From sequence record MK327934.1: 64,000 nucleotides of DNA; one strand, written 5' to 3'. Every line of letters begins with the position of its first letter. The first letter of the stretch is position 1. Position numbers and translations under genes: made by a program. The notes beneath the pieces are model-generated. The model saw only the letters and a program-made list of their open reading frames with translations. It had not been told where the DNA came from and ran no database searches. This document shows positions 9,155 to 45,564 of the stretch, piece after piece. This DNA is from Escherichia phage vB_EcoM_G2469.

Positions 9155-9308
9155 TTATTTCAACGTCACCTTTAGCTGCTTTATAACCTTCAGCCCAAGA
9201 TACAACAGAGTTTTTATCTGAGGATTCAAATTCAGGCATTGGACTTTCACCAATATTCACACAGTATGTTTCTTCATTTTCATCGAACCAAATAATTAAA
9301 GTAGTCAT
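9144..9308 (-). CDS. small hypothetical protein (54 aa), absent from the ORF track
   Basis: MTTLIIWFDENEETYCVNIGESPMPEFESSDKNSVVSWAEGYKAAKGDVEIIYI; its start and promoter region lie in a 47-bp exact repeat shared with the gene at 45236..45505. Confidence 0.45.
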   Translation of the reverse strand: MTTLIIWFDENEETYCVNIGESPMPEFESSDKNSVVSWAEGYKAAKGDVEIIYI

Positions 9309-9348
9309 TTTGTTTACTCCTCTGTAGTTGATAAGTCTATAGTATCAC
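9302..9348. repeat. 47-bp exact direct repeat, copy 1 (promoter -10, leader and ATG module)
   Basis: Identical to 45499..45545 by manual alignment. Confidence 0.85.
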
Positions 9349-9376
9349 CATCCTTGGTGCTTGTACATCATTATTT

Positions 9377-9682
9377 TTAATTTTTCCAACTTAACAACTT
9401 GTAGTGTCCTTCATTCATACGTGGTTTATCCCAAGAAATACTAATATATGATTCGCTGTCAATAGAAGTCGCCGGGTTTTTCTCTACCGTAAGACCTTCA
9501 CTTTCCAGCCATTCAATAGTATTTGCGCATAAATCAGAAGAACACCTAATCGGAAACCGGCAAGATTTTTCACCTTTAGCTGCAGTGTTATACATCTTTT
9601 CTAAAATACGCTTTTGCACGTTTTTAAAAATAGTTTCAGCAGATTCTTCAGATTTTTTATTCAGTTCAGTGTAAAGACTCAT
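9377..9682 (-). CDS. small hypothetical protein
   Basis: 101 aa; GGAG SD; early promoter at 9711..9739. Confidence 0.55.
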   Translation of the reverse strand: MSLYTELNKKSEESAETIFKNVQKRILEKMYNTAAKGEKSCRFPIRCSSDLCANTIEWLESEGLTVEKNPATSIDSESYISISWDKPRMNEGHYKLLSWKN

Positions 9683-9702
9683 AATATTCTCCTCATGTTT
9701 TG
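9679..9702. repeat. 24-bp exact repeat, copy 2
   Basis: Identical to 4939..4962. Confidence 0.85.
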
Positions 9703-9710
9703 ATAGGTCT

Positions 9711-9739
9711 ATAGTAACACATCTAGGGAAGAAGTAAAC
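9711..9739 (-). promoter_or_regulatory. sigma70-type early promoter
   Basis: GTTTAC-N17-TACTAT. Confidence 0.45.
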
Positions 9740-9767
9740 AACTTTTTCAGTAAGTTATAGACCCCCT

Positions 9768-9783
9768 AAAGGGGACCGAAGTC
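9768..9783 (-). terminator. stem-loop of a stem-loop/promoter cassette
   Basis: GGGGACUUCGGUCCCC followed by UUUAGGG; sits between a gene end and the next early promoter. Confidence 0.4.
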
Positions 9784-9791
9784 CCCATTCT

Positions 9792-10418
9792 TTACTTACG
9801 AGTTTTTGCATACTGAGCAGCGTCAGCAGCCAAACGACCTGCCTGACGAAGTTTTTCTTTAATCGCATCGTGAAGTGGTTGAGTGTACTTCAAACCTTCG
9901 ATAGTCAAATAAAGACGATAAAGGTCCGGGGTATCAAGGTTGTTGATATGTTGGCCATTACGAAGAATATTGAATTCACGAACGAGTGAAGATGTATCGG
10001 ATTCAATATCACGAACAAGCGAAGATAGTTGTTTATATTTTTTTTCCAGACTAGAAGTATCAAACTTAAGAGCAGGAGCTTTAGGAGTTGCTTTTACTTC
10101 AGGCTTAGGCTCAGGTTTTGCTATTGCTTTAGGGGTCGCAGGTTTAGGAATGGAAGGAGTAGGTTTTACTTTAGGCGAACCCGATTTAGCAGAAACACCA
10201 CCACTAACAATATCTTTGAATGCTTTAGAAGCTCTGTAATATTCTTTTTGGCTGGAAGTGTCGATACCGTACATGGCTTGAACGTTTTTGAAAAACTCTG
10301 TACTAGTTTTTGTACCAGAAATAGCATCGTAAGCAGCTTGCCATTTCTCTTTTGTCATACGTACACCGGCTTCGGTGATTACTTCCGTTTCGGCTAAAAA
10401 TTCATTAAAAGTATACAT
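9792..10418 (-). CDS. CTS-bearing internal protein with Pro/Lys-rich linker (novel member)
   Basis: 208 aa; N-terminus MYTFNEFLAETE (CTS-like); PKVKPTPSIPKPATPKAIAKPEPKPEVKATPKAP linker; TATAAATA late-promoter motif 36 nt upstream. Confidence 0.65.
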   Translation of the reverse strand: MYTFNEFLAETEVITEAGVRMTKEKWQAAYDAISGTKTSTEFFKNVQAMYGIDTSSQKEYYRASKAFKDIVSGGVSAKSGSPKVKPTPSIPKPATPKAIAKPEPKPEVKATPKAPALKFDTSSLEKKYKQLSSLVRDIESDTSSLVREFNILRNGQHINNLDTPDLYRLYLTIEGLKYTQPLHDAIKEKLRQAGRLAADAAQYAKTRK

Positions 10419-10453
10419 CGATGGTCCTTAGAAAGTAGGTTTATTGTTTACTA

Positions 10454-10461
10454 TATTTATA
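10454..10461 (-). promoter_or_regulatory. T4-type late promoter (TATAAATA)
   Basis: Exact TATAAATA on minus strand, 36 nt before the ATG at 10418. Confidence 0.6.
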
Positions 10462-10465
10462 CAAA

Positions 10466-10488
10466 AAAGCCCCAACCTTTCGGAAGGG
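10466..10488 (-). terminator. rho-independent terminator
   Basis: Minus-strand RNA AGCCCCUUCCGAAAGGUUGGGGCU followed by UUUUUU. Confidence 0.75.
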
Positions 10489-10495
10489 GCTATAT

Positions 10496-10793
10496 ACCTT
10501 GTCGGGGTTCCACCTGCTAAGGCAAGTGTTTGTACGAAACGCCGGGATTCGAACCCGGTTATTAAGTAGTTGACGCTACTCAATATTTTTAAAAGGCCAT
10601 ATCTCGACCATATCCGAACGTTCCGTCAAAAACGCTACTCGGCTTACGGCAAAGATATTTCCTCGAATCGATAATTCGGTGCGCCGTTTCTGCTGTGATA
10701 TAAGGGGGCATTAACAAAACATAAAGATTTATTAATGCCAGTCCTTACTCAGGGAACATCAGTCCGACGACTTACCGGTAGCGACCCGGCTTC
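10496..10793 (-). other. non-coding region with tRNA-like 3' half (possible stable RNA or tRNA remnant)
   Basis: Perfect T arm CCGGG-UUCGAAU-CCCGG plus acceptor 3' strand at 10535..10558, but no canonical D or anticodon arms fold; 8-bp palindrome GGCATTAA...TTAATGCC at 10708..10740. Confidence 0.35.
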
Positions 10794-11138
10794 TTATTTT
10801 GGCATATCATCAATTTGCTCTCGACGCCGACGCCATAGATTAATCGCTTCATAAACACATTCTGCGTTTGGTATATGACGGCAATAATATAATGATTCGC
10901 GTTTCTGGAATCGATGTTGCAATGGGATTTCGTTTAAAAGGTCTTTACGGTCAAAGTATTCAAAACTAGTTAACCTGGAACGGTTTTTAATGAACTTCCA
11001 ATGACCAAATTCATTTTGAACATAGATGTAATCTGCATGTTGGTATAACAAATTAATCAATCGGTCTGAAATAACTGTATCATGTTCGTTAAAATAAAAC
11101 GTTAAATCATGAACTACTAAGTAAACATTACCTTTCAT
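10794..11138 (-). CDS. hypothetical protein (114 aa)
   Basis: ATG at 11138 with GAGGAAAA SD; the longer track ORF would overlap the tRNA. Confidence 0.55.
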   Translation of the reverse strand: MKGNVYLVVHDLTFYFNEHDTVISDRLINLLYQHADYIYVQNEFGHWKFIKNRSRLTSFEYFDRKDLLNEIPLQHRFQKRESLYYCRHIPNAECVYEAINLWRRRREQIDDMPK

Positions 11139-11156
11139 ATTTTCCTCACTTAAAAT

Positions 11157-11233
<77 letters not shown>

Positions 11234-11333
11234 ATGATGCGGCTTTGGGTGTTTCAGTGTTACTCGTTTGTAGGTTCTACTTTTAACCCTTATTCGAACA
11301 ACTTACCTACCTAAGAGCGTACTCACCGCGAAT

Positions 11334-11408
11334 TGGTGGCCCTGGCTGGTTTCGATCCAGCTACCTATCAGTTATGAGCTGACAGCTCTCCCATTGAGCT
11401 ACAGGGCC
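11334..11408 (-). tRNA. tRNA with CAU anticodon (Met, or Ile if C34 is lysidine-modified)
   Basis: Acceptor GGCCCUG/CAGGGCC perfect, D arm GCUC-AAUGGGA-GAGC, anticodon loop CUCAUAA, T stem GCUGG/CCAGC with unusual loop AUCGAAA, encoded CCA. Confidence 0.7.
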
Positions 11409-11470
11409 TAAATAACTTTCTATTATGAAAGGCACTTGAGGGAGCACCTTTGGTAATAGAGGGTAGATTA

Positions 11471-11495
11471 ATAATAACACATAATTCTTAAAGCA
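11471..11495 (-). promoter_or_regulatory. candidate MotA-dependent middle promoter upstream of the tRNA genes
   Basis: Minus strand reads TTTGCTTTA, 12-nt spacer, TATTAT; about 55 nt upstream of the tRNA-CAU 5' end. Confidence 0.3.
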
Positions 11496-11504
11496 AATTA
11501 CGTT

Positions 11505-11795
11505 TTACCGTACCATATTAATGTAGTTATATTCAATGCAACGTAATTTCAAAGGGTTCTTGAAAATATCATATTCAAGAGGGCCTTTTTCTGTTTCAAT
11601 AAAGAAATCAAAGTTAACTGTGTTAAATTTAACGTCTTCACAGAGTAATTTAACTTGTGAAGATGAACGGTCGATATAAACCTTTTCAACCTCAAAGATA
11701 GTCAGAATACCGTAGTCATTAACCAGTGCTTTAGCTGCACGTTGGTCGCTTTCATATCCGTTCTCAATGGACGATACTTTAGCATAAAGAATCAT
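11505..11795 (-). CDS. small hypothetical protein
   Basis: 96 aa ORF in the early region. Confidence 0.5.
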   Translation of the reverse strand: MILYAKVSSIENGYESDQRAAKALVNDYGILTIFEVEKVYIDRSSSQVKLLCEDVKFNTVNFDFFIETEKGPLEYDIFKNPLKLRCIEYNYINMVR

Positions 11796-12154
11796 GAATG
11801 TTCCACCATTTCAAAGGTATGAGCATCAACAATATGATACCAGTCAAAATTTTCTTCCGCGTTTTTATAAATTTCGCGAAGAGCTTCAACAGTTTTTCCT
11901 GTAGCAACAAGATCGTCAATACCACCAAGAGGATAACAGTAATAACCAGCAAACAGAAGGAAATTAATAGTTTCTGTAGGTTCTGGATGCAGAACACCGT
12001 TATCATCTACCACTTCAAAGAAAGTGTAAGAAGGAGTACAAGTTTTAATCCAAACCCATGCTTGGGCTGCTGAATCAAATGGTCTGCGTATCAAACGACA
12101 ATCAGGGTCTTTAGAAGGATTTGCGTCAAAATCTGCATATACATGATATTTCAT
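11792..12154 (-). CDS. hypothetical protein
   Basis: 120 aa ORF, 4-nt overlap with the downstream gene. Confidence 0.55.
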   Translation of the reverse strand: MKYHVYADFDANPSKDPDCRLIRRPFDSAAQAWVWIKTCTPSYTFFEVVDDNGVLHPEPTETINFLLFAGYYCYPLGGIDDLVATGKTVEALREIYKNAEENFDWYHIVDAHTFEMVEHS

Positions 12155-12361
12155 TTACTCACCTTTTGCAATTTTATCCATAACGATAGCGATTAAGCCG
12201 ATTAGAAATGCTACTACCAATGAGATAGAATTTTCTGTTGTTGTCAGTAGTCCACAAATGAATCCTACAAACATCGAAAAACTAAAAGCCATTGAAGCAA
12301 TTACTACAGCAACATTACGAATCAGTTCAGCGCGTTTCATTTTATTTCTCCATTTACTCAT
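12155..12361 (-). CDS. small hypothetical membrane protein
   Basis: 68 aa, hydrophobic (AVVIASMAFSFSMFVGFICGLL, LVVAFLIGLIAIV); early promoter cassette upstream. Confidence 0.5.
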   Translation of the reverse strand: MSKWRNKMKRAELIRNVAVVIASMAFSFSMFVGFICGLLTTTENSISLVVAFLIGLIAIVMDKIAKGE

Positions 12362-12409
12362 TTGTTTTGATAGGACTACTATAACATATCCCTATAGGCT
12401 TGTATACCT

Positions 12410-12673
12410 TTATTTCAAATATATTGCGTATTTTTTATAGCCACCAGGCTCGTGTCGAAGACCTTTATCATTCGCAAAACGTTGAATGTTATTGAACTGA
12501 TTTTCATCAAGTTCGGATGTGTCAAATACGAAAAAGTTTCGTTTGTTACCAAGCGTGATATGCGGAGTTAAGTCAATGTTATACAAATTAAGAATATCAG
12601 CAATAACCTGATTGACCGCTTTGTTAATTTTCACACCAGATGATTCTGAGATGAATTCGTTGAAAGTTTTCAT
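12410..12673 (-). CDS. CTS-bearing small internal protein (novel member)
   Basis: Internal ATG gives MKTFNEFISES; early promoter TTTACA-N17-TATAGT at 12706..12734. Confidence 0.55.
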   Translation of the reverse strand: MKTFNEFISESSGVKINKAVNQVIADILNLYNIDLTPHITLGNKRNFFVFDTSELDENQFNNIQRFANDKGLRHEPGGYKKYAIYLK

Positions 12674-12690
12674 TTTAGGTTCCATTTGGT

Positions 12691-12723
12691 TGTTTTGATA
12701 GGACTACTATAACATAGTCCTAT
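12691..12723. repeat. recurrent about 33-bp promoter motif TGTTTTGATAGGACTACTATAACATAGTCCTAT
   Basis: Near-identical copies at 4956..4988, 6251..6283, 12363..12395 and a partial at 9113..9136; internal 8-bp inverted repeat ATAGGACT/AGTCCTAT. Confidence 0.8.
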
Positions 12724-12734
12724 CGTGTTGTAAA
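12706..12734 (-). promoter_or_regulatory. sigma70-type early promoter (cassette)
   Basis: TTTACA-N17-TATAGT upstream of CTS ORF 12410..12673. Confidence 0.5.
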
Positions 12735-13046
12735 TTATTTTATGCCTTTAGAAGAAATGGTATTTTGGCGTTTAACCCCTGTTTGTGAAAAATCGTGGTT
12801 ATCGATTTGGTCGACTCGCATAACACCAAATGCAGATTTAATTTTAGCCTTTGAACCTTTTTTGATACTAATTATCATATAAGTATCATTTTTCTTATAT
12901 TCGAAATTTGTTACTTCAACGCCTTGATTAGAAATTGACTTAATAATAGCATTAGCGTATTCATCATCTAACGGACCGGTGGTGTTAATAATAAAATTTT
13001 TATCGGCTTTAGTAGCTTCAGCGATAAACTCTTGATAAGTTTTCAT
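12735..13046 (-). CDS. CTS-bearing small internal protein (ipI-position member)
   Basis: 103 aa; N-terminus MKTYQEFIAEA is an exact CTS; next to the 57B-like gene; promoter at 13084..13112. Confidence 0.65.
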   Translation of the reverse strand: MKTYQEFIAEATKADKNFIINTTGPLDDEYANAIIKSISNQGVEVTNFEYKKNDTYMIISIKKGSKAKIKSAFGVMRVDQIDNHDFSQTGVKRQNTISSKGIK

Positions 13047-13083
13047 TTGTTTTTTCCGTTTGGTTTGTGATTTGATATGATGA

Positions 13084-13112
13084 TAGTATCACACCATCAT
13101 CCTTATGTAAAC
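13084..13112 (-). promoter_or_regulatory. sigma70-type early promoter
   Basis: GTTTAC-N17-TACTAT upstream of CTS ORF 12735..13046. Confidence 0.5.
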
Positions 13113-13125
13113 TGTTTTGTGAAAA

Positions 13126-13811
<686 letters not shown>

Positions 13812-13815
13812 TTTA

Positions 13816-14550
13816 TTACCTTAAGATTGTTTCAATTTTAGAATAAAGCTCTTCTAAAGAGCCGTCGTTTGTAATAACTAAATCGCCTTCTTCAATAGGC
13901 AACCCAGCTTCTGTAATATGTTTATCAGTGGATTCCGTACCAGAGCGAACAACATGAATAACTGTAGCACCCATCGCTCTAGCGGTTTCCATTTCATGGA
14001 CTTGACGTGTATCGGTTACAACATAGTAATCGAAATCACTTCCAATATAATCCATATAGTTTAATGCAAAAAGCTTAACCCAATACATACGGTCAAATAA
14101 ATTAACGACAACATCCGTACCGAGGGCTTGCATAAGACGGCGGATTGACCATGTGTCGTTGATATTATTTATAGCTTCACGCAGGGCTTCATATGGTTTA
14201 ATATCTAGATACGAATATCCACCTTCTAACGATGATAATACTTTAACATTATTAATTGGTAAATATTGACTTTGCAAATAAATTAGCGCTTCTTCCAATA
14301 ATTCAATAACATCCAACTTATTGATATTTAATGGCGTTTCACGGTCATATCCGATACCTTCAAAGTATTCGTATTTCAACTCTGTGAATACATCAGGATT
14401 TTCAGCATGCCTACGTCCCCAGGCTATTGCTAGAGCGTCTTTAATTGGATATGCTAATTGGTATTTTACGGATTTAAAGTTTGAATTGATGTAATCAGCA
14501 GTAGTGTCTTTACCACTACGTTTGATGCCACTTAAAAAGATTAGCTCCAT
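13816..14550 (-). CDS. 1: deoxynucleoside monophosphate kinase
   Basis: MELIFLSGIKRSGKDTTADYI P-loop N-terminus, T4 gp1-like throughout. Confidence 0.92.
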   Translation of the reverse strand: MELIFLSGIKRSGKDTTADYINSNFKSVKYQLAYPIKDALAIAWGRRHAENPDVFTELKYEYFEGIGYDRETPLNINKLDVIELLEEALIYLQSQYLPINNVKVLSSLEGGYSYLDIKPYEALREAINNINDTWSIRRLMQALGTDVVVNLFDRMYWVKLFALNYMDYIGSDFDYYVVTDTRQVHEMETARAMGATVIHVVRSGTESTDKHITEAGLPIEEGDLVITNDGSLEELYSKIETILR

Positions 14551-14603
14551 AGGTTTTCCTCATATAATTTATGAGTGATTATAACATACGGAGCTAGAAG
14601 CGA

Positions 14604-15194
14604 TTAACGCAAGGAAGGGTGTCTAGAAATGGATTTAGATTCGGCTGCTTGACGAGGCTGTTGAGATACAATGACTTCGCCATCTTTTTCTATCGTCATA
14701 TACGCATAGTGAATAGTTGCTACGCACGTAACGGCAGGGTCAGAGTCTTCGGTGTAACTAAATTCAATTTCACTCAAATCAGAAATCCATGGTTTATAGA
14801 AATTTGCCGTCAAAACTACTTCTGTCTTATTGTTGTTTAAAATGTGCAAAGTAACAAACTCAGGACCATCGGAGTGTGCAGTATTATGCCCAGTTATATA
14901 GTTATTAGTGCTGAGCATCCATTTATACATGTTCATCCAGGACGTCATGTCTTCATCAACTATAAATCGTACAACAAAAGGGTCATATTCAAATGTGGTG
15001 CCTGCACGCATTGCACGTCCTAACCCCATTGTGCCTGTCACAGTTTCAACAACAGGAATTCTCACACCTGGCAATGGTGCCGTTTGGGCATTGAGCACAA
15101 AACCTGAAGTTCGTGTACTATCTGGGATATCCACAACAAAGTTTGTTATATTTGTTTGGTTAAAAATCTGTCTCGTTGGACGAGTCATAAGCAC
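14604..15194 (-). CDS. 3: tail sheath stabiliser / tail tube terminator gp3
   Basis: T4 gp3-like sequence and synteny (1-3-2-4). Confidence 0.85.
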   Translation of the reverse strand: MLMTRPTRQIFNQTNITNFVVDIPDSTRTSGFVLNAQTAPLPGVRIPVVETVTGTMGLGRAMRAGTTFEYDPFVVRFIVDEDMTSWMNMYKWMLSTNNYITGHNTAHSDGPEFVTLHILNNNKTEVVLTANFYKPWISDLSEIEFSYTEDSDPAVTCVATIHYAYMTIEKDGEVIVSQQPRQAAESKSISRHPSLR

Positions 15195-15290
15195 CTCAAA
15201 AACGCTTTAATAAAAATGCAGTATAATGGTTTTAGGTCTCTTCCATTAATCTGGTTCAACAGAATATCAGAAGAACGGAAGAGAATAGAA

Positions 15291-16112
15291 TTAAGATTTC
15301 CAAACAGTATTCGCAGAGAAACGTTTTCCTTTTGACATAAACTGCTGAGTAGGTAACATGATTATGTTAGCCCAGTCTTTAGGAGCTATTTCTGTTATTG
15401 TTCCTCTAATGTGGCCTGGCAGGTATGCTTTAATCATTTTGTCAGCACCTTGAAATCCTTTCACCTTGCTCCAGTCTATCTTCAACTTTGTGTTATTAGT
15501 AATAGTAGTTGTGCTAGCATATTGCTTCAGCAATTCTTCAAGAAACTGTTGACGTGCTTTAGGCGGGATATAGTGCAAGTTTAACCCATACATCAAATTA
15601 TGTTTACCTAATCCTAAATAAATAATCAAAGGATATCTGTCCCAGTATGGCAGAGTATCTTTATGTTTAGCATCATACACGTAAGTATAAATTTTGCCTG
15701 GTGTAGGCTTGACTACTTTATGACCTTTTACACTTTTCTTAATTGTTTCAACAAACCACTTAGATGATTTGTTGTTTACTGCTGCGCCTTCATTTCTAAT
15801 CTTTTCTCGTATTGAACTGCGAAACGAGTTTATCATCAGAAGTTGACGTTCTTGCTTATTGAGTTTATTTTTAGGTTTAGATTCAAGCGTTTCAATTTTC
15901 TGTGCAGTCTTAATAGATGTTGCATATCTAGTCATTGCAGATGTAAACGACGAGTATTTTATTCCTTTTGATTCTGCAAATGCTTTTGCAGTGATTCCTT
16001 TCTCTTTAGCTTTCTTGTATTCTAATCCTATCTCAATCCATTTTCTTTCATTCATAGACTGAGCAATCTTAGGGGCTTGTACGCCTTCAGATATAATTTG
16101 GAATATGCTCAT
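15291..16112 (-). CDS. 2: DNA end protector protein gp2
   Basis: 273 aa, T4 gp2-like, synteny. Confidence 0.88.
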
Positions 16113-16114
16113 AA

Positions 16115-16564
16115 TTACCCCTTGTATCCGAGTTTTCTAAGACCATCTTCGGTTAGAACTCGAAATTTTATATTTCTCTTTTCAGCAACGGCAGAAGCGG
16201 CTTTCCATTTGTCACAGTTCACAGACCACGTGTAGATTTCATTCATATAACGTTTCTTAGCCGCAGTTGTAAGATTCACCGGTTTAATAGGTGGCTGAGT
16301 TTCTTTCTTTGGTTTTATTTCTACAAAAAACTCTTGACCTGATGCATCTTTCATCCATATGTCCATATAGTATCGACGTTTCTTACCTTCAGCATTACAA
16401 AAATATGGAATTACTGCCGTTTCGCTGCCCCATGCAATAATTTCTGGATTTTTATCCAACCATTCGAAAAAGAATTTTTCCCAGTTTGAACGATACGTTA
16501 TTTTGGTATGGTCTCCACGGTATTTTTTTAAATTTTTTGGGACCCATTTACCAGAGTAGGCCAT
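16115..16564 (-). CDS. 4: head completion protein gp4
   Basis: [19 protein letters not shown]...; ATG at 16564 with GGAGGA SD; late promoter 27 nt upstream. Confidence 0.88.
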
Positions 16565-16575
16565 GTTGTCCTCCT

Positions 16576-37212: not shown

Positions 37213-39195
37213 ATGTCACTTCTCTCTCCGGGCGTTGAGCTCAAAGAAACTACCGTACAGAGTACTGTAGTTAATAACTCCACTGGTACTGCTGCCCTGG
37301 CTGGAAAATTCCAATGGGGACCTGCATTCCAGATTAAACAAATCACTGATGAAGTTGCATTAGTTGATATGTTTGGTACTCCTAATACGGATACAGCAGA
37401 TTATTTCATGTCTGCTATGAACTTCCTTCAATATGGTAATGACCTTCGTGTTGTACGCGCAGTTGACCGTGATACTGCTAAGAACTCATCTCCTGTAGCA
37501 GGCAATATTGAATTCACAATCTCTGCTGCTGGTAGTAACTACGCAGTTGGTGATAAAATTATCGTTAAGTATTTGACCGAAACTGTTGAAGCAGATGGTT
37601 ATGTCACTTCAGTTGATGTCGATGGTAAAATTCTTAACATTTATATCCCAACCGGTAAAATTATTGCTCGTGCAAAAGAAATTAATGAATATCCGGCATT
37701 GGGTTCTAACTGGACCGCCGAAGTTGCCAGTTCTTCTTCTGGACTCTCTGGCGTTATTACAATTGGTTCTATCGTAACCGATTCGGGTATTCTGTTAACT
37801 GAAGTTGAAACTTCTGAAGAAGCTATTACTTCTCTAACTTTCCAAGAATCTATTAAAAAATATGGTGTCCCAGGCGTAGTTGCTCTTTATCCTGGTGAAC
37901 TTGGCGACCAGCTCGAAATTGAAATCGTATCTAAAGCAGACTACGACAAAGGTGCTTCAGCCCAGTTAAAAATTTATCCTGATGGTGGTACTCGCGCATC
38001 TACTGCTAAAGCAATATTTGGGTATGGCCCACAAACTGATGACCAATATGCAATTATCGTTCGTCGTAACGATGCTGTAGTCCAGAGTGTAGTTCTTTCT
38101 ACTAAACGAGGTGAACGCGATATTTATGGTAGTAATATCTTTATTGATGATTTCTTTGCTAAAGGTGCAAGCAATTATATTTTCGCTACTGCACAAGGTT
38201 GGCCAAAAGGTTTCTCTGGCGTAATCAAACTGGGTGGTGGCTTATCATCTAATGAAACGGTTGACGCTGGTGATTTAATGGAAGCTTGGGATTTGTTTGC
38301 TGACCGTGAATCTGTTAATGCGCAGTTGTTTATTGCCGGTTCTTGTGCAGGTGAATCTTTAGAAGTTGCTTCTACAGTTCAGAAACATGTTGTAGCAATT
38401 GGTGATTCTCGTCAAGATTGCTTGGTTCTTTGCTCACCACCACGTGCAACTATAGTCGGTATTCCTGTTAATCGTGCAGTTGATAATCTGGTTGATTGGC
38501 GTACTGCATCAGGAACTTACACTGATAATAACTTTAATGTAAGTTCTACTTACGCTGCTATTGACGGTAACTATAAATATCAATATGACAAATATAATGA
38601 TGTGAATCGTTGGGTTCCATTAGCTGCTGATATTGCTGGTCTTTGTGCTCGCACAGACAATATTTCTCAGCCTTGGATGTCTCCTGCCGGTTATAACCGT
38701 GGACAAATTCTTAACGTTATTAAGCTTGCAATTGAAACTCGCCAAGCGCAGCGTGATCGTTTGTACCAGGAAGCTATTAACCCTGTTACTGGTACCGGCG
38801 GTGATGGATATGTTCTGTATGGTGATAAAACTGCCACTTCTGTTCCTTCACCATTTGACCGTATTAACGTTCGTCGTTTGTTCAATATGGTTAAAACGAA
38901 CATTGGTTCAGCATCTAAATATCGCCTGTTTGAATTGAACAACGCATTTACCCGTTCTTCTTTCCGTACAGAGACTTCTCAATATCTACAGGGTATTAAA
39001 GCTCTCGGTGGTGTATATAACTTTAAAGTTGTTTGTGATACTACCAATAACACACCAGCAGTTATCGACCGTAATGAATTTGTAGCTACTTTCTACTTAC
39101 AACCTGCCCGCTCGATAAATTATATTACGTTGAACTTTGTAGCAACAGCAACCGGTGCCGATTTCGACGAACTGATTGGTGCTGTAGGCGGTTAA
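37213..39195 (+). CDS. 18: tail sheath protein gp18
   Basis: 660 aa; late promoter at 37178..37185. Confidence 0.96.
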   Translation: MSLLSPGVELKETTVQSTVVNNSTGTAALAGKFQWGPAFQIKQITDEVALVDMFGTPNTDTADYFMSAMNFLQYGNDLRVVRAVDRDTAKNSSPVAGNIEFTISAAGSNYAVGDKIIVKYLTETVEADGYVTSVDVDGKILNIYIPTGKIIARAKEINEYPALGSNWTAEVASSSSGLSGVITIGSIVTDSGILLTEVETSEEAITSLTFQESIKKYGVPGVVALYPGELGDQLEIEIVSKADYDKGASAQLKIYPDGGTRASTAKAIFGYGPQTDDQYAIIVRRNDAVVQSVVLSTKRGERDIYGSNIFIDDFFAKGASNYIFATAQGWPKGFSGVIKLGGGLSSNETVDAGDLMEAWDLFADRESVNAQLFIAGSCAGESLEVASTVQKHVVAIGDSRQDCLVLCSPPRATIVGIPVNRAVDNLVDWRTASGTYTDNNFNVSSTYAAIDGNYKYQYDKYNDVNRWVPLAADIAGLCARTDNISQPWMSPAGYNRGQILNVIKLAIETRQAQRDRLYQEAINPVTGTGGDGYVLYGDKTATSVPSPFDRINVRRLFNMVKTNIGSASKYRLFELNNAFTRSSFRTETSQYLQGIKALGGVYNFKVVCDTTNNTPAVIDRNEFVATFYLQPARSINYITLNFVATATGADFDELIGAVGG

Positions 39196-39227
39196 TAAGA
39201 CGCCTGATGGGCTATTTCGGTAGCCCA

Positions 39228-39235
39228 TATAAATA
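39228..39235 (+). promoter_or_regulatory. T4-type late promoter for gene 19
   Basis: TATAAATA directly after hairpin GGGCTATTTCGGTAGCCC. Confidence 0.6.
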
Positions 39236-39307
39236 TACTATATCGTTTAAAAATTAATTCTATGGGCATCCGGTTAATCCTAAGCCCATATTACTACAGA
39301 GGCTAAT

Positions 39308-39799
39308 ATGTTTGTAGATGACGTAACTCGCGCCTTCGAATCTGGTGATTTCGCTCGCCCTAACCTGTTCGAAGTAGAAATCTCTTATCTTGGGCAAAAC
39401 TTTAGCTTCCAGTGTCGTGCTACGGCTCTTCCTGCTGCGATCGTTGAAAAGGTTCCTGTTTCTTATATGAACCGTAAAATTAACGTGGCCGGTGATCGTA
39501 CATTCGATGATTGGACTATTACAGTAATGAACGATGATGCTCATAGCATTCGTCAGAAATTTGTTGATTGGCAAGGTATTGCAGCAGGACAAGGTAATGA
39601 AATTACCGGTGGTAAACCTGCTGAATATAAAAAGTCTGCTATCGTTCGTCAATTTGCTCGTGATGCTAAAACGGTCACTAAAGAAGTTGAAATTGTCGGC
39701 TTGTGGCCTACTAACGTTGGCGAAGTATCTCTTGACTGGGACAGCAATAACGAGATTGAAACGTTCGAAGTAACTCTTGCTCTTGATTGGTGGGAATAA
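39308..39799 (+). CDS. 19: tail tube protein gp19
   Basis: 163 aa, synteny. Confidence 0.96.
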   Translation: MFVDDVTRAFESGDFARPNLFEVEISYLGQNFSFQCRATALPAAIVEKVPVSYMNRKINVAGDRTFDDWTITVMNDDAHSIRQKFVDWQGIAAGQGNEITGGKPAEYKKSAIVRQFARDAKTVTKEVEIVGLWPTNVGEVSLDWDSNNEIETFEVTLALDWWE

Positions 39800-39847
39800 T
39801 CTGGTTGGGGAGAAATCCCCAGCTTCCCGTGATGACGGAGAAGTCCA

Positions 39848-39855
39848 TATAAATA
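39848..39855 (+). promoter_or_regulatory. T4-type late promoter for gene 20
   Basis: TATAAATA 29 nt before the ATG at 39884. Confidence 0.65.
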
Positions 39856-39883
39856 TAACTATAATTCCCATTCGGAGAATACA

Positions 39884-41455
39884 ATGAAATTTAATATCTT
39901 AAGTTTGTTTGCTCCATGGGCAAAAATGGACGAACGTGATTACAAAGACCAAGAAAAAGAAAATTTAGAATCTATCACCACACCAAAATTAGACGATGGT
40001 GCTAAAGAATACGAAGTATCTGAAAATGAAGCACAGCAAACATATAATGCTATGTTTCAGAGAATGTTTGGTAGTCAAGAACCAGGGCTCAAATCAACCC
40101 GTGAACTAATCGATACGTATCGAAATTTGATGACGAACTATGAAGTGGATAATGCAGTCTCTGAAATAGTTTCCGATGCTATCGTATATGAAGATGATAC
40201 AGAAGTCGTTTCTATAAATTTAGACAACACAAAATTTAGTCCAAATATAAAATCAATGATGTTGGATGAATTTAACGAAGTGTTGAATCATTTATCTTTC
40301 CAACGTAAAGGTTCAGACCATTTTAGGCGTTGGTATGTGGATTCTCGAATTTTCTTCCATAAAATTATTGACCCTAAACGCCCTAAAGAAGGTATTAAAG
40401 AGCTTCGTCGTTTAGACCCACGTCAAGTTCAATATGTCCGTGAAGTTATTACAACCACTGAAGCCGGTGTTAAAATAGTCAAGGGTTATAAAGAATATTT
40501 CATTTATGACACATCACACGAATCTTATGCTTGTGATGGTCGCATATATGAAGCGGGCACAAAAATAAAAATCCCTAAAGCCGCGATTGTTTACGCCCAT
40601 TCTGGTTTAGTTGATTGTTGTGGTAAAAATATCATTGGTTATTTGCATCGGGCTATTAAGCCAGCGAACCAATTAAAACTTCTTGAAGATGCCGTCGTAA
40701 TTTATCGTATTACTCGTGCTCCCGATCGTCGTGTATGGTACGTTGATACAGGTAATATGCCTTCAAGAAAAGCAGCAGAACATATGCAACATGTTATGAA
40801 TACGATGAAAAACCGTATTGCATATGATGCTACTACAGGCAAGATTAAAAACCAACAGCATATTATGTCGATGACCGAAGATTATTGGTTACAACGACGT
40901 GATGGTAAAGCAGTAACAGAAGTTGATACATTACCAGGTGCAGATAATACCGGAAATATGGAAGATGTACGTTGGTTCCGTAATGCGCTTTATATGGCTT
41001 TACGTATTCCTATTACCCGTATTCCAAGTGACCAAGGTGGTATACAGTTTGATGCTGGTACTTCTATTACACGAGATGAATTATCATTTGGTAAATTTAT
41101 TCGTGAGCTGCAACATAAATTTGAAGAGATATTCCTAGACCCGCTTAAAACTAATTTAATTCTTAAAGGAATTATTACAGAAGATGAGTGGAATGATGAA
41201 ATAAATAATATTAAGATAAAATTTCATCGGGATAGTTATTTCTCGGAATTAAAGGATGCTGAGATTCTGGAGCGTCGCATTAATATGCTTCAGATGGCCG
41301 AACCATTTATTGGTAAATATATTTCTCACAGAACAGCTATGAAAGATATTCTTCAGATGTCTGACGAGGAAATTGAACAAGAGGCTAAGCAAATTGAAGA
41401 AGAGTCGAAAGAGGCTCGTTTCCAAGACCCCGACCAAGAACAAGAGGATTTTTAA
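39884..41455 (+). CDS. 20: portal vertex protein gp20
   Basis: 523 aa; late promoter at 39848..39855. Confidence 0.96.
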
Positions 41456-41685
41456 TGGACGATTTAATTCAAGCTATTAAATCAAACGACCTCGTTGCTA
41501 CTCGAAAGTTTTTTGAAAGTGCAATGGCAGAAAAAACGGTTCGTTTGATTGAAGCACGCAAAGCAGAAATCGCTTCTCAATTTTTAATTGAAGGCGAAGA
41601 ACCTGAAGAAGAAAAGAAAGCTTCGGAAGACGACGCTGATGAAGGCGATGACGACGAAGACGAAGATGATGAGGACGATGAATAA
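41455..41685 (+). CDS. 67: prohead core protein gp67
   Basis: 76 aa with poly-acidic C-terminus. Confidence 0.9.
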
Positions 41686-42110
41686 TGTATCTTATCCCTG
41701 AATCTTATGAATTGGTACTCGAAAATGTCGAAGCACTTATTCCTGAAGCACAGGGCCGAATCGATGCATTGTCTTCTGCTCTCGATATTGACGATATAAA
41801 TACTATTATCGAGAACATGCTTGAAACTGAAACGGATTTAGCTGTTGCAATGGCTTCCATTATTAATGAAGAACAGTTAAATGAGTTTATCGTTAAACAT
41901 GTTTCTTCTCGTGGTGAAGTCACTCGCACTAAAGACCGTAAAACTCGTGAACGTAACGCGTTCCAAACCACTGGTCTTTCTAAAGCAAAACGTAGACAAA
42001 TCGCTCGTAAGGTCGTTAAAGCTAAAAAAGCTAACCCTTCAGGCCAAGTTAAAGGCTTGCGTAAGCGTAAAAAGGCTCTTAAACGTCGTAAAGCATTAGG
42101 ATTAAGCTAA
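41685..42110 (+). CDS. 68: prohead core protein gp68
   Basis: 141 aa, synteny. Confidence 0.9.
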
Positions 42111-42751
42111 TGAATAAACCCGAGTTACTTATTGAAACTTGGGGTCAACCCGGTGAGATTATTGATGGCGTTCCAATGTTGGAATCTCATGATGGAAAAG
42201 ATTCTGGCTTAAAACCAGGGCTTTATATAGAAGGTATTTTTCTTCAGGCAGAGGTTGTTAACCGAAATAAACGTTTATATCCTAAACGCGTTTTGGAAAA
42301 AGCAGTAAGTGACTATATTAAAGAACAAGTCGCAACCAAACAAGCCCTTGGAGAATTAAACCATCCACCTCGTGCAAATGTTGACCCTATGCAAGCCGCT
42401 ATCATTATTGAAGATATGTGGTGGAAAGGAAACGATGTATATGGACGTGCTAGAATTATTGAAGGCGACCATGGTCCCGGTGATAAATTAGCTGCTAATA
42501 TACGAGCTGGTTGGATTCCAGGTGTTTCCTCTCGTGGTCTTGGTTCTTTAACCGACACCAATAAAGGGTACCGTATCGTGAACGAAGGATTTAAATTAAC
42601 CGTCGGCGTAGATGCCGTATGGGGACCTTCTGCTCCAGATGCTTGGGTTACTCCTAAACAAATATCAGAATCAGAAAATTCGGTGGAAATCACCAAAAAC
42701 AGTGCTGATGAAGCATTTAAAGCTCTCGCAGAGAGTTTAAAAGCATTATAA
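42110..42751 (+). CDS. 21: prohead core protease gp21
   Basis: 213 aa; the protease expected to cleave CTS and scaffold substrates. Confidence 0.95.
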   Translation: MNKPELLIETWGQPGEIIDGVPMLESHDGKDSGLKPGLYIEGIFLQAEVVNRNKRLYPKRVLEKAVSDYIKEQVATKQALGELNHPPRANVDPMQAAIIIEDMWWKGNDVYGRARIIEGDHGPGDKLAANIRAGWIPGVSSRGLGSLTDTNKGYRIVNEGFKLTVGVDAVWGPSAPDAWVTPKQISESENSVEITKNSADEAFKALAESLKAL

Positions 42752-42784
42752 ATAATAATGTAATCTAAACCACAGGACACTAAA

Positions 42785-43597
42785 ATGATCAAAGAACAAC
42801 TTTTGAAAGAAGCTCAGAATATCGAGACTTCAGTTGCTCTTAATAGTGTTTTCGAATCAGTAGAACTGTCTCCGGACGTTAAAGCTAATTTCAGCACTGT
42901 ATTCGAAGCCACCGTTAAGCAGGAAGCAGTCAAACTAGCTGAATCTCATATCAAAGCTATCGCCGAAAAAGCCGAAGAAGAAGTTGAAAAGGCTAAAGAA
43001 GATGCTGAAGAGAAAGCTGATAAAAAATTGGCTGAACAAGCTTCTAAATTCCTAGACCATCTTGCAAAAGAATGGCTCGCAGAAAACCAAATCGCAGTTG
43101 ATAAAGGCATTAAAGCTGATTTGTTCGAATCCATGCTTGGTGGTCTGAAAGAACTGTTTGTTGAACATAACGTTGTTGTTCCAGAAGAATCTGTAGATGT
43201 TGTAGCAGAAATGGAAGAAGAGCTGGCCGAACATAAAGAAGAAACCGCTCGTTTGTTCGAAGAAGTTACCAAACGTGATGCATATATCAATTACGTTCAG
43301 CGTGAAACCGCTATTAATGAAAGCGTAAAAGACCTGACTGAATCTCAGAAAGAAAAAGTTATTGGCCTGGTTGAAGGTATGGATTATTCTGACGCATTTG
43401 GTACTAAGTTAACTGCTATTGTAGAAATGGTTAAAGGTTCTACTAAAGAAGAAGCCGCTATTACCGAAAGTATAAATACAGTTGACAATGACGCTGCCGG
43501 TCTTAATTTTGTTGCCGAAGCAGTTGACACTACCACAACTCAGGTAGAACAGAATTCTAATGTAAGTTTATATGCGAAAGTCGCATCTCGTTTCTAA
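42785..43597 (+). CDS. 22: prohead core scaffold protein gp22
   Basis: 270 aa acidic coiled-coil. Confidence 0.95.
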   Translation: MIKEQLLKEAQNIETSVALNSVFESVELSPDVKANFSTVFEATVKQEAVKLAESHIKAIAEKAEEEVEKAKEDAEEKADKKLAEQASKFLDHLAKEWLAENQIAVDKGIKADLFESMLGGLKELFVEHNVVVPEESVDVVAEMEEELAEHKEETARLFEEVTKRDAYINYVQRETAINESVKDLTESQKEKVIGLVEGMDYSDAFGTKLTAIVEMVKGSTKEEAAITESINTVDNDAAGLNFVAEAVDTTTTQVEQNSNVSLYAKVASRF

Positions 43598-43614
43598 TTT
43601 AAAGGTTAACACAA

Positions 43615-45183
43615 ATGACTACTATCAAAACTAAAGCTCAGCTCGTAGACAAATGGAAAGAACTGCTGGAAGGTGAAGGCCTGCCGGAAATCGCTAATAG
43701 CAAGCAGGCTATTATCGCTAAAATCTTCGAAAACCAGGAAAAAGATTTCGAAGTATCCCCTGAATATAAAGACGAGAAAATCGCTCAGGCATTTGGTTCT
43801 TTCTTGACCGAAGCTGAAATTGGTGGTGACCATGGTTATAATGCTCAGAACATCGCAGCAGGTCAAACCTCTGGTGCAGTAACCCAAATTGGGCCGGCAG
43901 TTATGGGTATGGTTCGTCGTGCTATTCCTAATCTGATCGCTTTTGATATTTGTGGTGTTCAGCCTATGAACAGCCCGACCGGCCAGGTATTTGCTCTCCG
44001 TGCAGTATATGGTAAAGACCCTATCGCTGCTGGCGCTAAAGAAGCTTTCCATCCGATGTATGCCCCAGACGCGATGTTCTCTGGTCAGGGTGCTGCTAAG
44101 AAATTCCCAGCTCTGGCTGCTGACACTACTACTGTTGTAGGTGATATCTATACTCACTTCTTCCAAGAAACTGGTACTGTATATCTGCAAGCTTCTGCTG
44201 TCGTAACACTTGATTCTGGTGCAACTGATGCAGCTAAATTAGATGCAGAAGTTAAGAAACAAATGGAAGCTGGTGCACTGGTAGAAATCGCTGAAGGTAT
44301 GGCTACTTCTATCGCTGAACTTCAGGAAGGTTTCAACGGTTCTACCGATAACCCATGGAATGAAATGGGCTTCCGTATCGATAAACAAGTTATCGAAGCT
44401 AAATCTCGCCAGCTGAAAGCTGCTTACTCTATCGAATTAGCACAAGACCTCCGTGCAGTACACGGTATGGATGCTGATGCTGAACTGAGCGGTATTCTGG
44501 CTACAGAAATTATGCTAGAAATCAACCGTGAAGTTGTTGATTGGATTAACTACTCAGCACAGGTTGGTAAATCTGGTATGACCCTGACTCCGGGTTCTAA
44601 AGCTGGCGTATTTGACTTCCAAGACCCGATTGATATCCGTGGTGCTCGTTGGGCCGGTGAAAGCTTTAAATCTCTGTTGTTCCAGATTGATAAAGAAGCA
44701 GTTGAAATTGCTCGTCAAACCGGTCGTGGTGAAGGTAACTTCATTATCGCTTCCCGTAACGTAGTTAACGTACTGGCTTCAGTTGATACTGGTATTTCTT
44801 ACGCTGCACAGGGTCTGGCTTCTGGTTTTAATACCGACACTACTAAGTCTGTATTTGCCGGTGTACTTGGTGGTAAATACCGCGTATACATCGACCAGTA
44901 TGCTAAACAGGATTACTTCACCGTTGGTTACAAAGGCGCTAACGAAATGGATGCAGGTATTTACTATGCTCCTTACGTTGCACTTACCCCGCTGCGTGGT
45001 TCCGATCCTAAGAACTTCCAGCCGGTAATGGGCTTTAAAACTCGTTACGGTATCGGTGTTAACCCGTTTGCTGAAAGTTCCCTGCAGGCTCCAGGTGCTC
45101 GCATCCAGTCCGGTATGCCATCTATCCTGAACAGCCTTGGTAAGAACGCTTACTTCCGCCGTGTATATGTAAAAGGCATCTAA
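43615..45183 (+). CDS. 23: major capsid protein gp23
   Basis: 522 aa; strong hairpin terminator downstream. Confidence 0.97.
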   Translation: MTTIKTKAQLVDKWKELLEGEGLPEIANSKQAIIAKIFENQEKDFEVSPEYKDEKIAQAFGSFLTEAEIGGDHGYNAQNIAAGQTSGAVTQIGPAVMGMVRRAIPNLIAFDICGVQPMNSPTGQVFALRAVYGKDPIAAGAKEAFHPMYAPDAMFSGQGAAKKFPALAADTTTVVGDIYTHFFQETGTVYLQASAVVTLDSGATDAAKLDAEVKKQMEAGALVEIAEGMATSIAELQEGFNGSTDNPWNEMGFRIDKQVIEAKSRQLKAAYSIELAQDLRAVHGMDADAELSGILATEIMLEINREVVDWINYSAQVGKSGMTLTPGSKAGVFDFQDPIDIRGARWAGESFKSLLFQIDKEAVEIARQTGRGEGNFIIASRNVVNVLASVDTGISYAAQGLASGFNTDTTKSVFAGVLGGKYRVYIDQYAKQDYFTVGYKGANEMDAGIYYAPYVALTPLRGSDPKNFQPVMGFKTRYGIGVNPFAESSLQAPGARIQSGMPSILNSLGKNAYFRRVYVKGI

Positions 45184-45207
45184 TCTTAATTGATTAAATC
45201 TTATTTT

Positions 45208-45225
45208 GGGAGACTTCGGTCTCCC
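45208..45225 (+). terminator. rho-independent terminator after gene 23
   Basis: GGGAGACTTCGGTCTCCC followed by ATTTTTGGTTTT. Confidence 0.8.
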
Positions 45226-45235
45226 ATTTTTGGTT

Positions 45236-45505
45236 TTATTTCTGTGCAATTTCGATGTAAGTTTTCAAAATATTTTGCCAATTAGGCATACCTTCTTGGA
45301 CATATGCCGGAGAACCATCTTTGTTTTTGAATGATGCAAGTTTATCAGTGGCCCAATAACCTTTAGCTCGAGCTTCAGAACCAACTTTCATCCATACTTT
45401 GTTGAAGGCATTACCATTAACTTTTGCACCATATTTTTCTACTAACTTAATTGCTTCAGCTTCCAGAACTTTTAAAGTATCTCGTAAGAAACGTGCTTTA
45501 GTCAT
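45236..45505 (-). CDS. small hypothetical protein between genes 23 and 24 (cassette ORF)
   Basis: 89 aa MTKARFLRDTLKVLEAEAIKLVEKYGAK...; start, leader and sigma70-type promoter lie in a 47-bp exact repeat shared with 9302..9348. Confidence 0.55.
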   Translation of the reverse strand: MTKARFLRDTLKVLEAEAIKLVEKYGAKVNGNAFNKVWMKVGSEARAKGYWATDKLASFKNKDGSPAYVQEGMPNWQNILKTYIEIAQK

Positions 45506-45545
45506 TTTGTTTACTCCTCTGTAGTTGATAAGTCTATAGTATCAC
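45499..45545. repeat. 47-bp exact direct repeat, copy 2
   Basis: Identical to 9302..9348. Confidence 0.85.
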
Positions 45546-45564
45546 ATACCAAATACGTTGTAAA
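45536..45564 (-). promoter_or_regulatory. sigma70-type early promoter within the 23-24 intergenic cassette
   Basis: TTTACA-N17-TACTAT; the -10 lies in the 47-bp exact repeat. Confidence 0.45.

Follow-up and report, generated by a model that had tools for sequence, protein, structure and literature searches.

Promoter-linked gene exchange in T4-like phages

The shuffling of accessory genes via look-alike early promoters is already known in T4-like phages, the closest described system being the promoter early stem-loop (PeSL), for which crossovers have been mapped between the -10 element and the ATG or Shine–Dalgarno (SD) sequence (Arbiol 2010, PMC2839356; Comeau 2014, PMC4122927). T4 recombination is cited in the PeSL literature as needing less than 50 bp of homology. 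Homing endonucleases of the Seg type co-convert flanking DNA. In T4, as a preliminary description of the DNA studied here had correctly stated, the interval that separates genes 23 and 24 contains segD, encoded by the minus strand; a review reports that no segD-specific promoter was found (Edgell et al., 2010, PMC2988022).

The stretch of DNA that was analyzed (64,000 nucleotides of Escherichia phage vB_EcoM_G2469, record MK327934.1; hereafter the window) derives from a Mosigvirus, an RB69-like T-even phage. It holds an exact repeat shared by an early gene in the capsid gene block and an early gene in an accessory region 36 kb away.

Exact repeats in the window

An exact 47-bp direct repeat (TAGTCATTTTGTTTACTCCTCTGTAGTTGATAAGTCTATAGTATCAC) occupies positions 9302–9348 (copy A) and 45499–45545 (copy B) and, as first described, extends from the -10 element to the first codons of two unrelated minus-strand genes. 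A second exact direct repeat, of 24 bp (TCATAATATTCTCCTCATGTTTTG), is found at 4939–4962 and 9679–9702. The longest exact direct repeat in 30 first-order Markov versions of the 64-kb window was 14–20 bp, versus 47 bp in the real sequence. There are nine exact direct repeats of at least 20 bp in the window, all nine of which lie in minus-strand early promoter/leader units; inverted repeats of at least 20 bp were absent from the window. Exact matches to the 47-mer occur in 126 phage records (those listed are all Mosigvirus), and a scan of IMG/VR with an exact 28-mer returned no match. Both copies occur in MM02, moskry, and RB69, with 1–3 private mismatches, and the repeat shows 0–3 private differences when LF82-8 is considered together with these three phages. 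At the gathering threshold, Rfam identified two tRNAs only in the window.

Anatomy of the 47-bp unit

Read on the minus strand, the 47-mer comprises TGn, a -10 element (TACTAT), a 24-nt leader, the SD sequence GAGGAG, and ATG ACT A. In copy A, TGn and the -10 element occupy 9339–9347 (hexamer 9339–9344), the SD 9317–9322, and the ATG 9306–9308, the last followed by four more bases of a 54-aa early ORF (9144..9308, minus strand; phrog_5461, RB69ORF145c) in the e.6–e.8 accessory region. The corresponding elements of copy B are at 45536–45544, 45514–45519, and 45503–45505, with four further bases of an 89-aa early ORF (45236..45505, minus strand; phrog_6003) that lies antisense between genes 23 and 24 (g23 and g24). 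In each copy 8 nt separate the SD from the ATG, and the 24-nt leader is unstructured as RNA (folding, z = +1.2 for copy B). A promoter scan gave TGTACA-17-TACTAT with TGn for copy A and TTTACA-17-TACTAT with TGn for copy B, both oriented with the early-gene (minus) strand of the window. From the consensus, we infer that both copies are active sigma-70-type T-even early promoter/leaders, with transcription predicted to start ~7 nt downstream of the -10 element (at ~9332 and ~45529, respectively). For both RB69 equivalents, an independent HMM had already predicted early promoters, Pe:72567 corresponding to copy A and Pe:109605 to copy B (Nolan et al., 2006, PMC1524935).

The -35/UP parts lie outside the repeat and differ between the two copies. 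For promoter A, the unrepeated part (9349..9376, minus strand) consists of the spacer and the -35 element TGTACA (9362–9367), and directly adjoins the upstream ORF at its stop codon, no stem-loop intervening. For promoter B, it (45546..45590, minus strand) consists of the spacer, the -35 element GTTTAC (45560–45565), and an A/T-rich UP-like region, and is positionally conserved in T4, VR20, QL01, L013, L015, and L016. The gene 24 late-promoter motif TATAAATA (45572..45579, plus strand), read directly in the sequence, lies within this UP-like region. The -35/UP half of promoter B and the late promoter of g24 thus point away from each other, and this half keeps its position even in T4. In RB69, likewise, Pe:109605 and the late promoter Pl:109573 overlap (Nolan et al., 2006, PMC1524935). 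The 70 nt upstream of each 47-bp copy contain no GC-rich hairpin (folding z = +1.3 and +1.8).

The promoter-leader family and its breakpoints

Both 47-bp copies belong to a family of ~15 homologous minus-strand early promoter-leader units in the window, 15 of which fit the pattern GTTTAC-N17/18-TA...T followed by a conserved yATCAA, the SD, and the ATG. The other units are only 62–66% identical to the 47-mer over the same span, and promoter-leaders of other genera are 80–87% identical to it (85–87% for those of T4 denV and Dhakavirus alc) and precede the unrelated early genes alc, regB, denV, and frd.3. Exact matches of 23–30 bp are shared by the units at 5000, 6295, 9155, 12407, and 12735, the last two being the promoter starts of a pair of units at 12359..12751 (minus strand).

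The 24-bp repeat is also part of this family. Its first copy (4939..4962, minus strand) contains the leader CAAAACATGAGGAGAATATT and the ATGA of a 101-aa ORF (4637–4942), with the promoter at 4971–5000; the second (9679..9702, minus strand) places the same leader before another 101-aa ORF (9377–9682), with the promoter at 9711–9739, both on the minus strand. The two 101-aa proteins are unrelated. The preliminary description had this repeat cover the same elements as the 47-bp repeat, which holds for the leader, SD, and ATG but not for the -10 element, which is located in the flank and is similar without being identical. A stem-loop (GGGGAC-UUCG-GUCCCC; 9771..9786, minus strand) is situated 31 nt upstream of the 9739 promoter, and this is the only one of the 15 units with full PeSL architecture, i.e., a stem-loop upstream of the -35 element. 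Homology with RB69 ends at 9696, inside the leader of the second 24-bp copy, and that with MM02 is interrupted at 9745, a position between the -35 element of the 9739 unit and its stem-loop. Inverted repeats flanking the -10 element were considered as a hidden stem-loop, with three independent examples (the D1 family and units 13112 and 8870); this structure is not claimed because complementarity within units was not clearly above that between units (mean longest stem 4.7 vs. 4.3 bp).

When the hyperplastic region (window positions 1–14500) was compared with two close relatives, 9 of 18 homology-block ends fell in promoter/leader/CTS units, which cover 8.9% of the DNA (P ~8e-6). Copy A itself is in the e.x/tRNA hyperplastic region, and the neighboring ORF differs from that of MM02 and RB69. 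Additionally, IP-type CTS/leader repeats (535–575, 1153–1223, 13015–13085, and others) were observed at the ends of indels.

The 23–24 interval

Copy B is located in the conserved capsid block between gene 23 (major capsid protein; 43615..45183, plus strand) and gene 24 (capsid vertex protein; 45607..46890, plus strand), for which annotations were transferred from MM02, although the content of the 23–24 interval varies among mosigviruses. The interval in the window contains the 89-aa ORF only, without an endonuclease gene. Folding identified a GC-rich UUCG-loop hairpin between g23 and this ORF (45207..45226; -16.1 and -13.5 kcal/mol), which constitutes an intrinsic terminator for g23 on the plus strand and has no U-tract on the minus strand. 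The 89-aa protein is unrelated to the 54-aa protein; in Pfam it matched DUF4859 below threshold only, and PHROGs lists it as of "unknown function". An AF2 model (pLDDT 85.6) has an H-H-hairpin-H topology, with no significant match among PDB folds (best E = 0.42, TM at most 0.36).

Genes of phrog_6003 are located in the g23–g24 interval, in antisense orientation, in Mosigvirus, Gaprivervirus, Dhakavirus, and uncultured relatives, with a different leader in each; VR20, QL01, L013, L015, and L016 all have the gene in this position behind other leaders. Judging from this distribution, the 89-aa ORF appears to be a resident of the interval rather than a new insertion. Similarly, the 54-aa protein is 98% identical in Tequatrovirus RB5-type phages, and the RB5 gene has a homologous -35/spacer and -10 element but a different leader. 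Relatives from other genera therefore carry the same genes in the same places behind other leaders, contrary to what the preliminary description had expected of a mobile cassette. Its view of the interval as an insertion hotspot filled by a cassette ORF is borne out as far as varying content is concerned (segD alone in T4, segD plus the ORF in LF82-type phages, the ORF alone in the window), but not for the ORF, which is resident in three genera.

The mosigviruses LF82-2 and ATK48 encode in this interval a SegD ortholog (57% identical to T4 SegD) together with a divergent phrog_6003 allele, ~93% identical to the protein of Dhakavirus QL01. In these phages segD is directly downstream of the phrog_6003 ORF, with transcription predicted from the early promoter, and an early-type promoter is also predicted at the matching 23–24 spot in T4, upstream of segD. 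The LF82-2 block of segD plus allele joins window-type sequence exactly after GAGGAG (45514), and the imported block of ATK48 does so after TATCAA. At the other end, alignment places the left limit of the LF82-type imported tract 28 nt before the g23 stop codon, in coding sequence, and rules out a junction at the terminator hairpin as suggested by BLAST. Because this junction is in g23 coding rather than regulatory sequence, crossovers appear to use any available homology.

Origin of the 47-bp repeat

The 47-bp identity is probably the product of one old gene-conversion patch between two resident promoter-leaders. Because the other units of the window, and even the best-matching leaders of other genera, fall well short of identity with the 47-mer, the match suggests identity by descent and not a shared consensus. 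The genes are resident, and the shared part is a regulatory patch extending from the -10 element to codon 3. Under this reading, a non-reciprocal homologous exchange between the two resident units would have taken place in an ancestor of the genus Mosigvirus, leaving each copy with its own, different -35/UP region, while the repeat would supply the promoter core, leader, and translation start to two unrelated immediate-early genes. The same short homologies would act as crossover points for the gain, loss, and swapping of accessory genes among T-even phages, including across genera. The repeat, its anatomy, its family membership, its genus-wide presence, and the breakpoints within units are direct observations, and recombination as the cause is inferred. 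In a comparison of orthologous genes in RB5, QL01, VR20, T4, L013, L015, and L016, the 47-mer leader was about equally similar to the RB5 leader of the 54-aa gene and the QL01 leader of the 23–24 gene. The ACT second codon seemed to indicate the 54-aa gene as donor, but ACT is also present in L016 behind a different leader; either copy may have been the donor. In relatives the two copies have not stayed identical, which gives no hint that homogenization is still going on. Conservation surely also owes something to purifying selection, which would act on a strong promoter and start of translation, given the similarity of the T4 denV and Dhakavirus alc leaders.

It is improbable that a strict PeSL cassette, comprising promoter, stem-loop, and 89-aa ORF, was inserted in the 23–24 interval, for example from a mini-circle. 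The PeSL papers document mini-circles and insertion via PeSLs in RB49/phi1, the interval varies among T4, LF82-type phages, and the window, and the 89-aa ORF has a promoter at one end and a hairpin at the other. However, neither 47-bp copy has an upstream stem-loop, the phrog_6003 ORF is antisense at this very site, behind different leaders, in uncultured relatives and at least three genera, and the -35/UP half of the promoter is outside the repeat and conserved in position down to T4. Moreover, the direct repeats are 36 kb apart, and essential genes would be lost if they recombined, so no viable deletion or mini-circle could arise from these two copies. Of the original proposal of a mobile PeSL-type cassette, what stands is that promoter/leader units are a substrate for shuffling, at which breakpoints cluster.

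Tight purifying or convergent selection acting alone, without recombination, is distinctly improbable as the cause. T4 early promoters do have an extended consensus beyond the -35 and -10 elements, and the similar leaders before alc, regB, denV, and frd.3 in other genera fit such selection; but the remaining units of this genome diverge across the same span, the orthologs of other genera stand behind different leaders, and convergence would not be expected to yield a 47/47 match, non-consensus positions and first codons included.

SegD-type homing with co-conversion of flanks, as a source of both the 23–24 variability and the shared leader, is very unlikely. Seg endonucleases co-convert flanking DNA (PMC2988022), and LF82-2 and ATK48 carry segD next to a foreign allele within a tract imported from the end of g23 up to the leader. 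Yet the window, RB69, and most mosigviruses have the 47-bp repeat with no endonuclease gene in the interval, and the copy at 9.3 kb has none nearby. Homing thus explains the LF82-type variant and not the repeat. An assembly or sequencing artefact has practically no chance of being the explanation, because the 126 records are independent and both loci carry the sequence wherever checked, as in MM02, moskry, and RB69.

Beyond the single gene-conversion patch, a broader proposal is that promoter-leader units are preferred exchange points, more than passive stretches of homology, that let T-even genera swap early accessory genes, even in the capsid block, perhaps aided by the short inverted repeats flanking the -10 element in several units, with SegD under early control and the 23–24 promoter as a conserved docking site. 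We consider this unlikely; if it were true, the 23–24 early promoter, including the site upstream of T4 segD, would dock foreign early genes.

Comparison with known systems

Because shuffling via look-alike early promoters is established in T4-like phages, the repeat is real but ordinary, and it reveals no new mechanism. It is a clean natural example of the reuse of ~50-bp regulatory homologies by T4-like phages for the exchange or re-wiring of small early genes. Here no cassette would have delivered genes; residents would instead have swapped regulatory sequence. This leader was also the crossover point at which a SegD-containing block from another genus entered the capsid gene cluster. These observations are useful for insertion-site design and for the annotation of genomes of Mosigvirus, a genus in wide use in phage therapy collections.

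T4 SegD, a free-standing GIY-YIG homing endonuclease (Edgell et al., 2010, PMC2988022), shares with the 89-aa ORF its interval and antisense orientation, whereas the window has no endonuclease gene and mosigvirus segD follows the phrog_6003 ORF. The T4 "uber" UP/-35/TGn/-10 early promoters (Hinton, 2010, PMC2988021) resemble the units described here in GTTTAC, TGn, the -10 element, the A/T-rich upstream region, and the extended consensus; the portions of that work and of Nolan et al. (2006, PMC1524935) drawn on here catalogue promoters and do not report exact sharing from the -10 element to the start codon. Flanks of T-even IP genes (Repoila et al., 1994, as cited in PMC4122927) are comparable in that short regulatory/N-terminal repeats flank interchangeable genes, although the 47-bp repeat involves neither IP genes nor CTS. 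With respect to PeSLs, 14 of the 15 window units, including both 47-bp copies, lack the defining upstream stem-loop/terminator, one 47-bp copy is inside a conserved capsid gene block, and the ORFs downstream of the 47-bp copies are residents and not newly inserted ORFans. Nevertheless, as in PeSLs, a sigma-70-like early promoter, SD, and start codon are repeated before unrelated small ORFs; the predicted 47-bp promoters fit the T-even consensus TTTACW-N17-TAYWAT; the units as a family appear concentrated in hyperplastic regions, where copy A lies but copy B does not, with indel and replacement breakpoints between close relatives falling within the units; and crossovers lie between the -10 element and the ATG or SD. 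This pattern is consistent with a PeSL-type mechanism that would operate here without the stem-loop.

Phage Group and Gene Layout

The region at 44-47 kb is 99% identical, and the region near 9 kb 98-99.8% identical, to the Mosigvirus genomes MM02, NicPhage, FL31, and mar005P1; thus, the window belongs to an RB69-like T-even phage. The former region carries gene 23 (43615-45183) and gene 24 (45607-46890), with a 270-nt minus-strand ORF between them; the latter is an accessory e.x/tRNA region, with denV/ipII-type genes on one side and genes 57/1/3 on the other. The left 14 kb of the window is one hyperplastic region of the RB69-like T-even group. The window has two tRNAs (11160-11233 and 11337-11408); a 516-nt ORF that lies beside the tRNA genes in MM02 and moskry is absent from the window (11498-11507). 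Positions 10459-10795 show 94% identity to an RB5 region annotated as the small RNAs rnaC/rnaD, and Rfam gave no match for this segment.

Exact Repeats and Early Promoter-Leader Units

The 47-bp repeat (copy A, 9302-9348; copy B, 45499-45545) and the 24-bp repeat (4939-4962 and 9679-9702), described beforehand as exact, were verified as identical within each pair. The chance level was estimated by simulating the window 30 times under a first-order Markov model; exact direct repeats in these simulations reached a maximum length of 14-20 bp, and both repeats are therefore far above chance. All exact direct repeats of at least 20 bp in the window lie within minus-strand promoter/leader units, named here by promoter start. 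Copy A precedes a 54-aa ORF (9144-9308) and copy B an 89-aa ORF (45236-45505), and these two proteins show no relationship, as the preliminary description had claimed. In the 5000 and 9739 units, the 24-bp repeat spans the leader, SD, and ATG, with mutually unrelated 101-aa ORFs downstream (4637-4942 and 9377-9682).

The minus-strand sequence of the 47-mer is GTGATACTATAGACTTATCAACTACAGAGGAGTAAACAAAATGACTA. Both copies include TGn with TACTAT as the -10 hexamer, the initial transcribed region, a leader of 24 nt whose RNA proved unstructured on folding, an SD (GAGGAG) with ATG 8 nt downstream, and four coding bases 3' of the ATG. The SD contains GGAG, the motif targeted by RegB. From spacing only, we infer start sites near 45529 (copy B) and 9332 (copy A). 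The -35/UP parts differ between the copies: the -35 of copy B is GTTTAC (45560-45565), within an A/T-rich stretch that also holds, on the opposite strand, the gene 24 late-promoter motif TATAAATA (45572-45579); the -35 of copy A is TGTACA (9362-9367), which adjoins the stop codon of the ORF upstream.

A search for the pattern GTTTAC-N16-19-TAnnnT, followed by inspection of matches, identified about 15 minus-strand units in the window, starting at 259, 1244, 1985, 5000, 6295, 7183, 8870, 9155, 9367, 9739, 12407, 12735, 13112, 45565, and 60905. The units have in common yATCAA soon 3' of the -10, a GGAG/GAGG-type SD, and ATG, and members of unit subfamilies share exact matches of 23-30 bp. In Dhakavirus, Tequatrovirus, and others, early genes including alc, regB, denV, and frd.3 have sequences upstream that match the 47-mer at 80-87% identity. 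According to Hinton (2010; PMC2988021), the consensus of T4 early promoters extends past the canonical elements, and some SD sequences are sites of RegB cleavage. The 57 early promoters predicted for RB69 by Nolan et al. (2006; PMC1524935) include Pe:109605, in the 23-24 interval, and Pe:72567, 5' of ORF145c (the 54-aa gene); a late promoter predicted there, Pl:109573, overlaps Pe:109605. In early promoters (e.g., 12706-12735, 13083-13112, and 8841-8870), the -10 hexamer lies between short inverted repeats, the pairs GATAGGACT/AGTCCTATC, ATGATG/CATCAT, and GAGAGC/GCTCTC being three sequences in one common register; the signal is not clearly higher than in cross-unit controls.

Genes Downstream of the 47-bp Copies

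The 54-aa ORF is phrog_5461 (RB69ORF145c), with 98% protein identity and ~86% DNA identity (including the promoter) between Mosigvirus and RB5-type Tequatrovirus. In the RB5-type phages the gene lies between e.8 and e.6, in a neighborhood unlike that of the window; its -35/spacer/-10 is homologous to the window's, and its leader is different.

The 89-aa ORF is a member of phrog_6003. The earlier proposal that it is a cassette ORF filling an insertion hotspot does not hold: it is a conserved resident. Gaprivervirus VR20, Dhakavirus QL01, and three uncultured T-even contigs (60-69% identical) have homologs in the g23-g24 interval, likewise in antisense orientation, and the -10/leader differs in each of these. 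RB69 holds the window-type allele in frameshifted form, annotated as fragments ORF188c and ORF189c (RB69 extract L008, 7292-7532, corresponding to window 45236-45505); either a pseudogene or an error in the reference sequence may account for this.

T4 does carry segD between genes 23 and 24, as had been described, in the orientation of the window's 89-aa ORF. Edgell et al. (2010; PMC2988022) report that a segD-specific promoter could not be found in T4. Directly 5' of T4 segD (T4 extract L007, 3734-3823, minus) lies TTTACA, a 17-nt spacer ending in TGA, and TATTAT, which by sequence is a good sigma-70/early-type promoter-like site. It is homologous to window 45506-45600, occupies the position of the Mosigvirus 23-24 early promoter, and is back to back with the g24 late promoter.

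In the mosigviruses LF82-2 and ATK48, the 23-24 interval contains an imported block (564-1493 in both extracts, L004 and L005, corresponding to window about 45155-45514) with a SegD ortholog (57% identity to T4 SegD) and a foreign phrog_6003 allele (32% identity to the window's, about 93% to that of Dhakavirus QL01). The left end of the block is in coding sequence, 28 nt 5' of the g23 stop (about 45155); the right junction to window-type sequence follows GAGGAG (45514) in LF82-2 and TATCAA in ATK48. The SegD gene directly follows the Dhakavirus-like phrog_6003 allele without a promoter of its own, and the interval's early promoter would drive both genes; such predicted transcription is unusual compared with T4, in which endonuclease-specific promoters are middle or late (Edgell et al., 2010; PMC2988022). 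Because mosigvirus SegD begins at the residue aligned with Met4 of annotated T4 SegD, translation of T4 segD may begin at the second ATG.

GC-rich hairpins occur at gene ends in the window (45207-45226, 9771-9786, 8180-8197, 48567-48584, and 46897-46924). Tetraloops of the UUCG/UCCG type are present in four of these five hairpins, and the stems of the set are alike (GGGAGAC, GGGGAC, GGAGGAC, and AAGGGGC). The hairpin 3' of g23 is kept in LF82-2 and ATK48, although its flanks are replaced there.

Recombination Breakpoints and Origin of the Repeat

In window 1-14500, comparison with MM02 and moskry gave 18 homology-block ends, of which 9 fall in promoter/leader/CTS units, which constitute 8.9% of the DNA (rough binomial test, P about 8e-6, the ends not being fully independent). 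These ends, and the block junctions in the 23-24 interval, support the units as crossover points. For example, the -35 of the 5000 unit and that of the 7183 unit are the precise sites at which relatives have extra ORFs inserted; a replacement begins at 9745, just 5' of the -35 of the 9739 unit; and RB69 homology stops at 9696, within the 24-bp leader. The left junction of the LF82-2/ATK48 block lies in coding sequence; thus, crossovers exploit whatever homology exists, and on the right side the promoter-leader is simply the homology on offer.

Repeats of the SD and first ~10 codons (MKTYQEFI...), which we take to be a capsid-targeting sequence, occur in minus-strand internal-protein-like genes (535-575, 1153-1223, 1477-1547, 2239-2279, 12642-12712, and 13015-13085). 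Several are at indel ends versus MM02 and moskry, and two flank an extra 192-aa ORF in the window (606-1184).

The 47-bp repeat is present in RB69, MM02, moskry, and LF82-8, with 0-3 private differences per genome, confined to one copy, and the event is therefore older than the sampled genus; these four genomes give no sign of continuing homogenization of the two copies. Both ORFs are resident and their leaders vary, so the shared part is a regulatory patch, not a gene-carrying cassette. An exchange of regulatory sequence between genes already resident is the most likely source of the repeat.

Comparison with PeSL Cassettes

This has an already-known explanation: T-even early promoter-leader homologies serve recombination, i.e., promoter-early stem-loop (PeSL)-type shuffling. 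By definition, a PeSL has a stem-loop terminator directly upstream of a strong early promoter of sigma-70-like type, and ends with an SD and start codon; PeSLs are over-represented in hyperplastic regions and at indels, and their crossovers were located in the stretch from the -10 to the ATG or SD (Arbiol, 2010, PMC2839356; Comeau, 2014, PMC4122927). A hairpin in the PeSL position was found only at the 9739 unit (GGGGAC-UUCG-GUCCCC, 9771-9786); within 70 nt upstream of copies A and B none was found, and these upstream regions fold worse than shuffles. The initial assignment to a PeSL-type cassette is thus sustained in part: copies A and B differ from PeSLs by lacking the upstream stem-loop, but share with them the promoter, the SD/ATG, and the breakpoints.
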